From positions 9,774-73,773 of the forward strand of contig DAOLIP010000005.1 in NCBI GenBank assembly GCA_035328475.1: a DNA stretch of 64,000 nt. The letters are read 5' to 3'. The notes beneath the pieces were generated by a model that was not told where the DNA came from, searched no databases, and saw nothing but the letters and a program-made list of their open reading frames with translations. A program made the translations under genes and the position numbers. How positions within the stretch are numbered: the stretch's first letter is position 1; each line of letters opens with the position of its first letter. The stretch comes from Ferruginibacter sp. (GTDB taxonomy: Bacteria; Bacteroidota; Bacteroidia; Chitinophagales; Chitinophagaceae). Shown in pieces: positions 19,378 through 25,227 of the stretch.

Positions 19378-22300
19378 ATGTACGCATTAATGAATAAATA
19401 TTATATCGCTGTTACACAACAAACAGGTAAACTGTTGTTGCAAATATTAATGATCGTTTCAACAACTACGGCCAACGCTCAAAATATAAACAAGCCCAAT
19501 AAAATGGGCCCGATGGGGACACAGGTAAATACTTATACAGGCAATCTTTTTATATCACGAAATGATATTTATATACCGGCAAGAGGCTTTGACCTGAATA
19601 TTTCTTTTAACTACAACAGTTTTAACTATGAGCAGAATAATGGGTTTGGAAATGGCTGGAGTTCTGGGTATTCTATAAGATATATAAACGATACAGCCGG
19701 CAGCAAAACAATTGTCTGGGGCGACGGAAGAGAGGATAACTATACCTTGCTTTCAGGCAGCACATTCCGGTCACCAAAAGGTTTTTTTTCTGTGTTCTCG
19801 CAATACCAACCCAATAAATACCTACTTACTGAACCCGACGGCACTAAATTTTATTTTGATAACAGCACCCATAAAAGGGTTACCAGGAAGGAAGACCCCA
19901 ATGGCAATTATATAAACTTTAATTACACGGATACTTTATTGACTTCTTTGATTAATACGGCGGGACAAACTATTTCATTTACTTATAATAGTAATGGAGA
20001 TCTGGCAACTGTGGTAGATGCCATAGCAGCGCCCGCCCGTACCTATACCTATACTTATGAGAGCAATGGCAATCTTAAACAGGTCACCGATCCCATGGGC
20101 GGTACAAATAAATACAGCTACCTTATTAACGGTCCGATGAAAACCATGACCGACAAAAACAACAATACGGTTGATATCATTTACTTCAGCGATTTTTCCA
20201 TAAGCGAAATAATAGGTTGTAACAAACGGATAAGTTTTTCTTACGATACCTCCACTAACATAACAATAGTAACGGATCATTTAGCCAGCGGAAACAACCA
20301 GGTGACAAAATACGGGTACAAAAAATCGGGAAGCCAGGTTTGGCTTAGTTCCATATCCGGCAATTGCTGTGGTTTTAATATGAGTTTTGAATATGATGAT
20401 AATGGTAACAAAATTAAAGAGACAGATGCCAATGGTAATGTATATAATTATACTTATGACAGCAGTGGAAATATGCTTACGATGAAAGACCCGTTAAGCC
20501 GGATAAGCACTTTTACTTATTCAGCTACCTATAACCAGGTAACCAGCTTTACCGACCCGAAAGGGCATGTTTATATTATGATCTATGATGCTGCCGGTAA
20601 CTTAACCCAATTAACCGAACCCGGCAATAATATTTACACAGCTGCTTATAATGCCAATGGAGATATTATAAGCAGTACCGATCCCAAAGGGAATGTGTAT
20701 GCTTACAGTTATGATGCTTATGGCAATCCTGTGTCAGTATCGGGACCCAATGGTTACCACGCCAGCCTGGCAAATGATGCCAGGGGTAATTTATTGGCAT
20801 TTACCGATGCAAGGAATAATACGCACACGGCAGAGTATGATATTTTAAACAGACTCAAAAAGATCATTGACCCGGTTAATAACAGCGTAAAGCTGAATTA
20901 TGATGCAGAAGGGAATGTCATTTCATTGATCAATAAAAACAATGAAACAAGCTTGCTCGGTTATGATGCATCCAACAGAATCGTTCAGCTTACCGATGTG
21001 ATGGGTAAAAAAACCTATGCAGTATACGATGGCATGAACAACTTAACCGGCATCATCAATGCACTCGGTCATTCAGTGAAATTCAGTTATGATACAAGAA
21101 ACAGGCTGACGGGTATTACGGATCCCCAGGGGAATAACAGCAGCCTGAATTACGATGCCAATGGCAATATTACTTCTATCAGTTTACCCGATGGCGAAAC
21201 AATCAATTATACCTACGACCCGTTAAACCGGCTTACTTCCATGCATGATATCAACGGGGCTATTGCAAACTTCAGTTACGACAGAAACAATAATATAACC
21301 AGATATACAAACGGAGCCGGCGCTGATATTACCGCAGAATACGATAGTCTGGACAGGCTAAAAAAAATTACCGATCCGCTGGGTAATTCATATTTGCTTT
21401 TGTATGACAGGAACAGCAACATTACGTCAGTTACCGACCGGAATGGATTTACCAGTAATTATACTTACGACAGTCTTGATCGTGTTAAAACCATGACGGA
21501 TAATAATGGATTTACAGTAACCAGGACTTATGACGCAGCCGGAAATATCATTTCATTAAAAGACCAGAATAATAATATCACCAGTTACGTATATGATAAT
21601 TTGAACAGAGTGAATAGAGTCACTTATCCCGATTCCCGGTATATGGAATACACCTATAACAACAAAGGGAATATTATTGTCAAACGACTTACTGACGGCA
21701 CCTCTATTAATTTCACATATGATTCCCTGAACCGGGTTATTTCAAAAACATTGCCTGACGGCCATGTATATAGTTATACCTATGATGGGTTGGGAAGGGT
21801 GCTGTCGGCTGCCAACAATACAGGTACCGTTACGATAGCCTATGATGCGTTGAACCGTGTTGTTTCCGAAACATATAATGGCCGAACAGTAAATTATGCG
21901 TATAATATTGCCGGCCGTACACAAACCACCATCTATCCCGACAGCACGGCGGTTACAAAAAATTTTGATACCAGGAACCGCTTGTTAAGTCTTTCCAGGA
22001 ACAATACCATATTGGTGAGCTACCAGTACAATAACCTCAACAAGGTAATTGCTAAAACATTTTCAAATGGCATAACAACCAATATGCAGTATGATTTTGC
22101 AGGCAGGTTGTCTAATTTTTCAACAGCAGGAGGCACTGTTCAGAACACAAACCTTTCCTATAACAACGAACAGAATAAGACAGCCATCGAACGATTGAAT
22201 AACCCAGCTAAGTCAGAACAGTTCACTTATGATAATGGCCGCAGGCTTACCAATTATAAGAGAGGGGTTATCGGCGGCGCCCCAACCCTACAGAACACGT

Positions 22301-25227: not shown

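Follow-up and report, generated by a model that had tools for sequence, protein, structure and literature searches.

The DNA analysed here, referred to as the window, is a stretch of 64,000 nucleotides from Ferruginibacter sp. (contig DAOLIP010000005.1, positions 9,774 to 73,773), and the subject of this work is its gene at 19378-25227 on the forward strand, an open reading frame (ORF) of 1949 codons plus stop with an ATG start. The gene encodes an Rhs protein whose payload sits mid-chain and is followed by a conserved stalk and a type IX secretion system (T9SS) tag, a layout kept in dozens of Chitinophagaceae species. The Rhs shell and core run to L1222, followed by a 266-aa helical stretch and four beta-sandwich domains, the last of which is a T9SS type A sorting domain. 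An initial annotation, made from the letters alone, had described an Rhs core with an internal, Cys-bracketed cargo ahead of a T9SS domain; all the motifs that it quoted (RDLIG, DIFGL, the Gly-rich stretches and RFMRIRKR) were found where it had put them. Its observation was thus confirmed and its interpretation partly supported, while it had overlooked three features presented below: a giant gene that is the obligate partner of the Rhs gene, a pair of two-component regulators, and forms in which the gene is split. We found no description of an internal-cargo Rhs protein with a T9SS signal in the literature on DUF7619 or on Rhs/YD-repeat proteins with type IX secretion.

The protein begins with a predicted Sec-type signal peptide (residues 1-34, 19378-19479), read off the sequence from an n/h/c pattern with cleavage between …LLLQILMIVSTTTANA and QN (ANA/QN); the same arrangement of a K-rich part, a hydrophobic part and A-x-A/Q-N recurs in orthologues. 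A DUF6531 N-terminal Rhs domain (residues 48-121, 19519-19740; Pfam E = 8.8e-12) is followed by a YD/RHS-repeat shell (residues ~122-1137, 19741-22788) with 11 stretches of RHS_repeat (PF05593, E = 2.5e-106) and with YD_repeat_2x (TIGR01643, E = 4.4e-92). The best sequence matches of the shell in the PDB were Rhs shells of type VI secretion systems (T6SS) and bacterial teneurin-like proteins. In the DUF6531 region, QVNTYTGN occupies the place of PVxxxxGE, which we take to be the N-terminal cleavage motif of T6SS Rhs proteins. The Glu position of this motif is Asn in all 45 orthologues in which the motif could be located, and on this presumed assignment it suggests that N-terminal cleavage does not take place here. 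Pfam matched no NHL or TEN_NHL domain in the Rhs protein, and its alignment to PDB 9pt5 spans the YD shell only. A separate 423-aa IPT/TIG and NHL-repeat protein encoded on the reverse strand (2883-4154), about 15 kb away from this shell without NHL, also matches TEN_NHL (E = 3e-22), which is probably a coincidence.

The Rhs-associated core (residues 1138-1222, 22789-23043; TIGR03696 52 bits, cut-off 32.5) ends exactly at L1222. The catalytic Arg and Asp are found in R1194-D1195 (22957-22962), with which RDLIG starts, and the predicted autocleavage site in D1218-IFGL1222 (23029-23043, with the L1222 codon at 23041-23043), where the Pro of the canonical DPxGL is substituted. Both catalytic Asp residues reported at the end of the core are present, and they are preserved, together with the motifs QRD[LP][IL]..Y and G[IVL]D..GL, in 50 of 50 proteins, namely the window and 49 full-length fused orthologues (1887-2030 aa) from GTDB genomes. 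Autoproteolysis after L1222 is most likely, judging solely from the conservation of these catalytic residues. In one sludge metagenome (run X1), low-depth minor contigs match short pieces of the Rhs gene within 21560-23003 (21560-21583/22014-22037 and 22855-22897/22978-23003) with unlike sequence between them, which suggests a co-occurring related strain or paralogue differing around the core.

The cargo that follows is all-helical by prediction, spans residues 1223-1458 (23044-23751, 26.1 kDa) and contains KTGSGLGKLGFGLNVADAA at residue 1310, LAQSGLGFTPAGGIY at 1358 and RFMRIRKR at 1437. It passes into a Gly/Pro-rich linker, CPQNGGPGGTLKNNPKSPGTTKPVIAVGPK (residues 1459-1488, 23752-23841), which begins with the invariant C1459 and is predicted to be disordered by AlphaFold2 (AF2; predicted local distance difference test, pLDDT, < 55). 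The DPN motif (D1489-P-N) then opens an extended DUF7619-type beta-sandwich (residues 1489-1672, 23842-24393; Pfam E = 2e-15 around residues 1490-1669). Next come an FN3-like domain (residues ~1676-1767, 24403-24678; W-x-G-x-DD-x-GG-x-G…ATDxVGNxE), supported by AF2 strands, Foldseek FN3/Ig matches and conserved columns, and a third beta-sandwich (residues ~1773-1868, 24694-24981), delimited in the AF2 model and with a weak F5_F8_type_C match (E = 0.01). The T9SS type A C-terminal sorting domain (residues 1879-1949, 25012-25224) scores 37-44 bits with TIGR04183 (cut-off 23) and 36-38 bits with PF18962 (cut-off 27), and reaches the last residue of the protein.

AF2 modelled the four beta-sandwich domains after the linker with pLDDT > 90, and Foldseek searches with the model of residues 1223-1949 returned only generic FN3/Ig/MG strings. 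Some 490 conserved residues (linker, DUF7619, FN3, beta-sandwich and sorting domain) thus trail the variable stretch, which is C-terminal only in the split-gene relatives described below; as had been proposed, the cargo is tethered to the conserved half that bears the secretion signal. The ~460 residues of confidently predicted beta-sandwich past the cargo imply that the chain would leave the shell. Elsewhere in the window, another T9SS type A cargo is encoded at 58093-59358 (+), a protein with Laminin_G_3 (concanavalin-like) and Por_Secre_tail domains. This second sorting-domain protein and the affiliation with Chitinophagaceae are indirect hints that the host may have a T9SS on which secretion would depend.

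The identical 1949-aa protein was found on 4 independent metagenome contigs, activated sludge included. About ten studies of sludge or wastewater, with at least 20 runs between them, contain near-identical DNA. In a small sludge metatranscriptome, contigs at least 99% identical fall on the giant partner gene and on Rhs positions 22300-25171, which is weak support for transcription, as the contigs could stem from carried-over DNA. Among named relatives, metagenome-assembled genomes of Ferruginibacter and other Chitinophagaceae come closest. Searching GTDB genomes with the module alignment gave 80 loci, nearly all from Chitinophagaceae, with cultured strains and one complete genome among them; 49 have intact fused ORFs, including Phnomibacter sp. 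MR, Terrimonas NS-102, Flavisolibacter longurius and Polluticaenibacter yanchengensis (cultured isolates and the complete genome are among these). The layout could in principle be an accident, with an ordinary Rhs toxin gene run into a neighbouring T9SS gene by assembly error, frameshift or a functionless recent fusion, and it is true that split versions exist and that some long-read assemblies hold frameshifted copies. The recurrence of the identical ORF across independent contigs and runs, and of intact fused ORFs in 49 species-level genomes, already refutes this explanation, to which we give practically no chance.

We then compared the cargos of the 50 proteins, in which the stretch from the cleavage site to DPN ranges from 207 to 320 aa. 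Median pairwise identity is 58.5% in the shell, 14.5% in the cargo and 56.6% in the tail. In bins of 40 residues, the identity of the window protein to three orthologues from the closest genomes (L009, L010 and L012) is 47-90% as far as residue 1222, drops to 10-40% between 1233 and 1472 and then lies mostly at 65-92%. The identity breakpoints are sharp, and the stretch after DIFGL is variable between conserved flanks, as the initial annotation had expected. Cargo type is uncoupled from tail type: identity to the window is 56% in the cargo and 45% in the tail for L088, and 16% and 80%, respectively, for L009. Genomes with two operons hold cargos of differing groups (e.g. L023/L054 and L025/L034).

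The expected polymorphism stood as far as hypervariability is concerned; unrelated, swappable toxin domains were not found. Transitive single-linkage BLAST at E < 1e-4 over at least 80 aa connects all 50 cargos, which rules out discrete unrelated families, and only at 1e-20 do they break into 16 groups (n = 20 for the group of the window). The cargos form one very divergent family with a common alignment plan: a (D/E)-D-C-(P/D) start, helices, LGKLGxGLNxxD..IKG, AGGNLAQSxLGFTPxG..YNLxDFxQExxTGKSxxE, a basic helix and C-P-Q-N-G-G-x-G-G-T-x-K. The helices ascribed to the cargo are present in the AF2 model, and about 10 of the 50 cargos, from several groups, have a transmembrane (TM)-like Gly/Ala-rich helix of glycine-zipper type, aligned with LAQSGLGFTPAGGIY of the window.

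No Pfam family matched residues 1223-1486, and neither Pfam searches of the cargo of the window and of five other cargo groups nor a PDB sequence search gave a match. Among 1.84 billion representatives, phmmer returned only 7 relatives of the window cargo at E ≤ 1e-3. Without the linker, the orthologous cargos measure 19-30 kDa, an estimated volume of ~23,000-36,000 Å^3. The cavity of BiTLP, a bacterial protein whose YD shell the window shell resembles, was measured at ~44,000 Å^3 (PMC13018210); on these estimates, the cargo would fit a BiTLP-like cavity yet would fill most of it.

Homologues of the C-terminal 727 residues fall into four groups. The first are Rhs-linked proteins spanning cargo and tail, and the second are many ~510-530-aa 'T9SS sorting domain' proteins spanning only the last ~68%; the linker of the window protein is homologous to the mature N-terminus of such stand-alone tail proteins. 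In the third group, the DPN-DUF7619-FN3 module stands behind other surface domains (SprB, PKD_6, CARDB, HYR), and in the fourth it occurs in Rhs proteins of other phyla without a T9SS signal (P0111, P0113 and P0117). These non-Bacteroidota proteins (P0111 and P0117 from loci L089 and L090, and P0113) also place variable, Gly-rich sequence behind their DPxGL site and ahead of DPN-DUF7619-FN3, and continue with Calx-beta, DUF4214 or other domains in place of the T9SS signal, so that the internal-cargo layout is not confined to T9SS organisms.

A second tail class was seen in 9 of the 49 orthologues (L071, L073, L075, L078, L080, L084, L085, L086 and L088), in which the last ~150 codons, after DUF7619-FN3, encode a different C-terminus (…YQWQVDTGSGF…WENPANWSC.SLPD.NTDV…GFTLTI.K) without a recognisable T9SS domain. 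It gave no Pfam or NCBIfam match and may be an undescribed sorting or anchoring domain. Since both alternative C-termini and relatives without a T9SS signal exist, the link between Rhs shell, cargo and DUF7619 is older than T9SS and separable from it. This coupling is the core invariant, with the T9SS signal as one of several endings.

An alignment of 121 sequences delimits a conserved unit from D1489-P-N to about residue 1755, in which DPN and many other positions are at least 90% conserved. DUF7619 has been classed among the CnaA-like, CLIPPER-related stalk domains, and the CLIPPER-like isopeptide triad is Lys-Asp-Asn (PMC12617251). Asp and Asn candidates are conserved in our alignment and no Lys column reaches 90%, i.e. 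an isopeptide triad is not clearly conserved in this DUF7619. The conservation of DPN extends to relatives outside Bacteroidota and might instead mark a second processing event at the Asp-Pro bond between D1489 and P1490, which after secretion would free cargo and linker, with the stalk as a disposable T9SS carrier and the cargo as a disulfide-closed peptide. Bonds of this type are chemically labile, and some self-processing modules (FrpC-type) make use of them. We nevertheless consider such processing highly improbable: DPN also heads stand-alone tails and the DUF7619 modules behind SprB, PKD and CARDB that have no cargo, AF2 sets it at the start of an ordered beta-sandwich, which fits a structural role, and no similarity to known self-processing modules was found.

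The Rhs gene belongs to a conserved unit in which a response regulator and a histidine kinase gene are divergent from a giant CARDB/PKD gene and the Rhs gene, without an immunity gene. The response regulator (7617-8297, reverse strand) has a receiver and a LuxR/GerE helix-turn-helix domain (Pfam Response_reg and GerE) and is kept beside the kinase, upstream of the giant gene, in 9 of 9 related loci with 47-93% identity. The sensor histidine kinase (8347-10269, reverse strand; signal peptide-like N-terminus and Pfam TPR, HisKA_3 and HATPase_c) is likewise conserved in position in 9 of 9 loci, down to 34% identity, and genes further out are not conserved. The giant secreted partner (10458-19349, forward strand; 2963 aa) consists of a signal peptide, LRR/receptor-L-like parts, PKD_6 and six CARDB stretches. 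Its gene ends 28 nt ahead of the Rhs gene, and in all 57 loci with enough upstream DNA a homologue, aligned as far as its final residue, stops shortly before the Rhs gene begins. Pfam matched only CARDB, PKD_6 and Recep_L/LRR in the giant protein; no T9SS sorting domain, no NCBIfam match and no TcA-family domain were found in it.

The absence of a conventional immunity gene, which had been noted for the window, was borne out by a wider survey. Downstream, the window continues with opposite-strand genes for a Fer2/FAD/NAD oxidoreductase and a TetR regulator, which leaves no conventional immunity gene there. In 58 loci, we clustered all ORFs in the 3 kb after the Rhs gene that, counted from their first Met, reach 70 aa or more, and found no conserved same-strand family. 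Recurring ORFs were only housekeeping genes (by sequence inspection malonyl-CoA-ACP transacylase-, GTP cyclohydrolase I- and QueD-like genes, as well as the Fer2 reductase and TetR), together with a LytTR-like ORF of 104 aa. A 62-aa antisense ORF over the 3' end of the Rhs gene (25129-25317, reverse strand, equivalent to 15752-15940 of L001) is called on some contigs; it has no Pfam match and is probably a spurious call.

These observations could also be explained without a toxin. The particle would then be a teneurin-like surface adhesion or recognition apparatus, with the YD shell as the head on a stalk and the cargo as a filler or linker for shell folding, fast-evolving since only helicity, length and the two Cys residues are constrained. 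Besides the missing immunity gene, this explanation accommodates the distant homology of the cargos, which share motifs such as LGKLGxGLNxxD and DFxQExxTGKS and are not unrelated enzymatic domains, and the lack of any match to a known toxin family. It also agrees with a locus that is near universal in Chitinophagaceae, where the copy number is usually one or two, and that comes with regulators of its own and an adhesin-like partner, and metazoan teneurins are indeed YD shells with an exiting C-terminus that serve adhesion. The cleavage residues are strictly kept, however, whereas mammalian teneurins are without the cleavage motif, and the sharp, cassette-like breakpoints together with the mismatch of cargo and tail types resemble diversifying exchange, not drift. 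The different cargo groups in paralogous operons of one genome and the TM-like glycine-zipper helices point in the same direction, and on balance we think a non-toxin apparatus unlikely.

The only Cys residues between L1222 and DPN are C1225 (NDCPD, 23050-23052) and C1459 (PNCPQ). Exactly two Cys are found in 49 of the 50 cargo stretches: one always lies 25-32 residues before DPN (50/50), and the other at +1 to +8 after the cleavage site in 41 proteins, at +20 to +23 in 5 and at +93 to +98 in 4. The pattern recurs in metagenome homologues with different cargo, and it goes far beyond chance since it is kept in 49 of 50 proteins at 14.5% median identity. The bracketing pair singled out by the initial annotation is thus conserved across very different cargos, and neither a conserved cargo nor unconserved Cys residues, which it had named as refuting outcomes, were seen. 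The likeness to AB toxins drawn from it is loose, as a C1225-C1459 bond in the fused form would lie within one fragment.

Further evidence came from loci in which the gene is split. In L008/L013, L019, L057, L133, L134 and L135, the Rhs gene ends after a cargo of 199-246 aa, and the 6 of 6 stand-alone tails examined follow the order giant-Rhs-tail; each has a signal peptide of its own, and its gene comes immediately after the Rhs gene (2-75 nt past it, overlapping in L019). The tails start with a signal peptide and …AQ-x(0-3)-C-P-x-x-GG, matching the internal N-C-P-Q-N-G-G of the window protein; a reading of 'AQ-x-C-P' as a lipoprotein start was rejected, as the sequence ahead of the Cys does not agree with a lipobox. 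In 5 of the 6 split forms, a single Cys is present in the cargo, in a loop midway along it that corresponds to the region of the +93 to +98 Cys of some fused forms, and the N-terminal stretch of the tail past the signal peptide also has one (two in L135). Two Cys in the fused chain versus one per chain in the split forms is the strongest comparative evidence for a putative cargo-stalk disulfide link. The other short 'tail' ORFs come from long-read assemblies and are fused genes with frameshifts, and four seemingly orphan cassettes that start inside the core or cargo (P0013, P0022, P0025 and P0032) proved to be pieces of single Rhs genes broken by frameshifts in error-prone long-read contigs.

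Conserved Cys residues are also found outside the cargo. Three in the shell, C281 (20218-20220) and C330-C331 (20365-20370), are Cys in 50 of 50 orthologues, and as their number is odd, at least one should be free or bonded outside the shell chain. In the giant protein, C2849 (codon 19002-19004, in the Gly/Pro linker GNAPGCAPGAA) is Cys in 58 of 58 aligned giants, the nearest other Cys, C2717, in just 45 of the 58, and C2849 is a candidate partner for an inter-chain disulfide. The six invariant Cys of the two proteins permit two complete wirings. We favour the one with cargo-linker, shell-shell and shell-giant bonds; cargo-shell, shell-shell and linker-giant bonds are also consistent with the data, and C1225-C1459 pairing is thus one of two arrangements and unproven.

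In this second arrangement, the same particle would be wired as in BiTLP, with C1225 bonded to an unpaired shell Cys inside the cocoon and C1459 bonded to C2849 of the giant, which would couple both proteins. It would pair all six invariant Cys, including the odd shell set and a giant Cys that sits in a Gly/Pro linker like C1459. It also has a precedent in the cryo-EM structure of BiTLP, where C2216 of the C-terminal domain (the cargo) is bonded to C719 of the FN-plug inside the closed shell (PMC13018210). The N-terminus of a split tail need not thread into a closed shell, and a first cargo Cys whose place ranges from +1 to +98 would suit a flexible cargo meeting a fixed site on the wall. The arrangement would, however, leave the Rhs protein of the split forms without a covalent link to the sole protein that bears a sorting domain, and their one-Cys-each pattern is more simply explained by direct cargo-tail pairing. 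C1225 is also 3 residues from the C-terminal core, whereas C281, C330 and C331 are in the N-terminal part of the shell. Taken together, we regard BiTLP-like wiring as possible and well worth keeping in view, though we would not presume it.

In the reading that we prefer, T9SS would export the Rhs cocoon, and a peptide and/or disulfide leash would keep its membrane-active cargo on a surface stalk; we put the chance of this reading at roughly one in two. Sec would export the Rhs protein to the periplasm, where in an oxidising environment the YD-repeat cocoon would fold around the ~26-kDa helical cargo and the aspartyl site would cut the chain after L1222. Via the invariant Cys and the ~30-residue Gly/Pro linker, the chain would exit the shell and become a rigid four-domain stalk. 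T9SS would recognise the sorting domain, export the whole particle and probably anchor its stalk, at the tip of which the trapped cargo would hold the cocoon in place. The invariant Cys pair would serve as a disulfide leash, in the favoured wiring between the cargo Cys and the Cys at the N-terminal end of the stalk. With fused genes, the disulfide would close the cargo into a loop unable to slip from the shell; with split genes, it would be the sole covalent link between the encapsulated cargo and a separately made stalk. The giant adhesin-like partner would supply binding to a non-kin target, and reduction of the leash or mechanical load on it would free the membrane-active cargo onto such targets. 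Under this proposal no immunity gene would be needed, because the cargo would be released only on contact with a non-kin target.

The cargo is a fast-evolving, Gly-rich, amphipathic to hydrophobic domain, helical by prediction and most likely membrane-active. Several observations weigh against the leashed-cocoon reading. AF2 models the cargo with low to moderate confidence (pLDDT 32-83), and the cargo of the window itself is amphipathic, without a strongly hydrophobic segment (maximum Kyte-Doolittle value 0.73 over 19 aa). It exceeds the ~15 kDa typical of the cargos of bacterial YD shells, and the largest cargo (30 kDa) would nearly fill the cavity. Homology among all cargos and the missing immunity gene would also fit a non-toxic structural element under weak constraint. 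The nine orthologues with the alternative C-terminus have no recognisable T9SS domain, the remote relatives outside Bacteroidota have no T9SS signal, and the three shell Cys and C2849 of the giant permit the other wiring. The broader claim is that the locus embodies a new mode of Rhs-toxin delivery, in which a T9SS-exported, leashed cocoon and a giant adhesin under two-component control would attack membranes in a contact-dependent, immunity-free manner, with a teneurin-like shell opening and bacterial self-cleavage kept. We advance it tentatively.

We also compared the locus with known systems. The closest solved structures by sequence (PDB 7q97, 8qja, 8h8a, 7pq5 (Tre23), 8uy4 (Tse15) and 8cp6 (Tse5)) are all T6SS Rhs effectors. 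Like the window protein, these have a YD-repeat shell, a core that ends in D-x-x-G-L with both catalytic Asp residues, and a variable region right after the cleavage site. Unlike them, the window protein has a predicted Sec signal peptide and not a PAAR/VgrG-type N-terminus, Asn at the cleavage-Glu position, an internal variable region with its long conserved tail and no immunity gene, a single divergent cargo family versus many unrelated enzymes, and a T9SS sorting domain as export signal. The cargo of Tse5 is a glycine-zipper pore former, which is the same kind of activity as proposed here.

The shell also matches BiTLP (PDB 9pt5/9ifo, E = 8e-36), a Sec-exported surface YD shell with adhesin domains, whose membrane-active cargo is cleaved at the core and tethered by a disulfide to another part of the particle (PMC13018210). 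BiTLP has an FN-plug/NHL superfold, a closed shell and a ~10-kDa cargo that ends the protein, and genomes with such teneurin-like proteins encode immunity proteins (PMC13018210). In contrast, the window protein has no NHL by Pfam, its cargo is ~26 kDa, its chain would go on beyond the shell, and it is the separate giant that bears the adhesin-like domains. In metazoan teneurins, the uncleaved chain continues past an Rhs-core-like region, through an opening of the YD shell and into folded domains outside (PMC13018210). The window protein would resemble them in that its chain exits the shell; it differs in that mammalian forms are without the cleavage motif and uncleaved, have an external ABD and a Tox-GHH unrelated to DUF7619, FN3 and the sorting domain, and are type II membrane proteins.

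A giant first gene followed by a cocoon gene is likewise seen in Tc toxin complexes (TcA + TcB-TcC; PDB 6l7i TccC2 and 5kis RHS2), whose cocoon holds an autocleaved cargo of ~30 kDa, similar in size to the cargo here, and gives a weak core match (E = 7e-5). In the present locus, by contrast, beta-rich Ig-like modules (PKD_6, CARDB) make up the giant, and the cocoon consists of one chain and has a T9SS tail. TANFOR toxins are Bacteroidota polymorphic toxins with Sec signal peptides that are encoded next to T9SS substrates and hypothesised to use T9SS (PMC7073777). Unlike the window protein, they have an N-terminal TANFOR domain, terminal toxins (e.g. the BaCT DNase) and immunity genes, and no sorting domain of their own, Rhs shell or internal cargo. 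With AB toxins such as diphtheria toxin and clostridial neurotoxins, the protein shares a predicted nick beside a Cys and a second Cys downstream that could hold the pieces until reduction. In AB toxins, however, the disulfide spans the nick, whereas here the nick would part shell from cargo and both Cys of the fused form would be on the C-terminal fragment; a true inter-chain bond would arise only in the split form or with the alternative wiring.

The remainder of the window encodes a type I restriction-modification system on the reverse strand (40237-49562; HsdR 40237-43461, HsdM 47880-49562), with a GC content of 0.37 versus ~0.44 and, between HsdR and HsdM, a 559-aa ORF (45045-46724) without a Pfam match. 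A hybrid sensor kinase of 999 aa with Reg_prop/Y_Y_Y domains (37230-40229, forward strand) has a TTG start that lies within the end of a clostripain-family (C11) peptidase gene overlapping it (35802-37241, reverse strand), and local GC across 35802-40229 is just 0.34-0.36. A PLD-like (PLDc_2) protein of 549 aa is encoded at 51231-52880 on the forward strand.

Rhs cocoons are known as carriers of terminal toxins of T6SS, Tc and Gram-positive systems, and a role of T9SS in the delivery of polymorphic toxins has so far been hypothesised only (PMC7073777). The locus is a concrete, widespread and tractable candidate for T9SS toxin delivery, which cultured Chitinophagaceae carry, and its natural pair of fused and split forms predicts a specific inter-chain disulfide. 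A shell that would have to release the chain and yet keeps its cleavage site bears on how cargo exits and on the origin of teneurin-type open shells. If the new delivery mode is true, the protein would stand as a living intermediate between the closed Rhs cocoons of bacteria and the open shells of teneurins, and it would be the first polymorphic toxin of defined architecture that depends on T9SS. An internal cargo slot with fixed junctions would also be an attractive scaffold to encapsulate foreign proteins or display them on Bacteroidota surfaces. If instead the structural, non-toxin explanation is right, the locus would still be a conserved, regulated surface apparatus of abundant wastewater bacteria.

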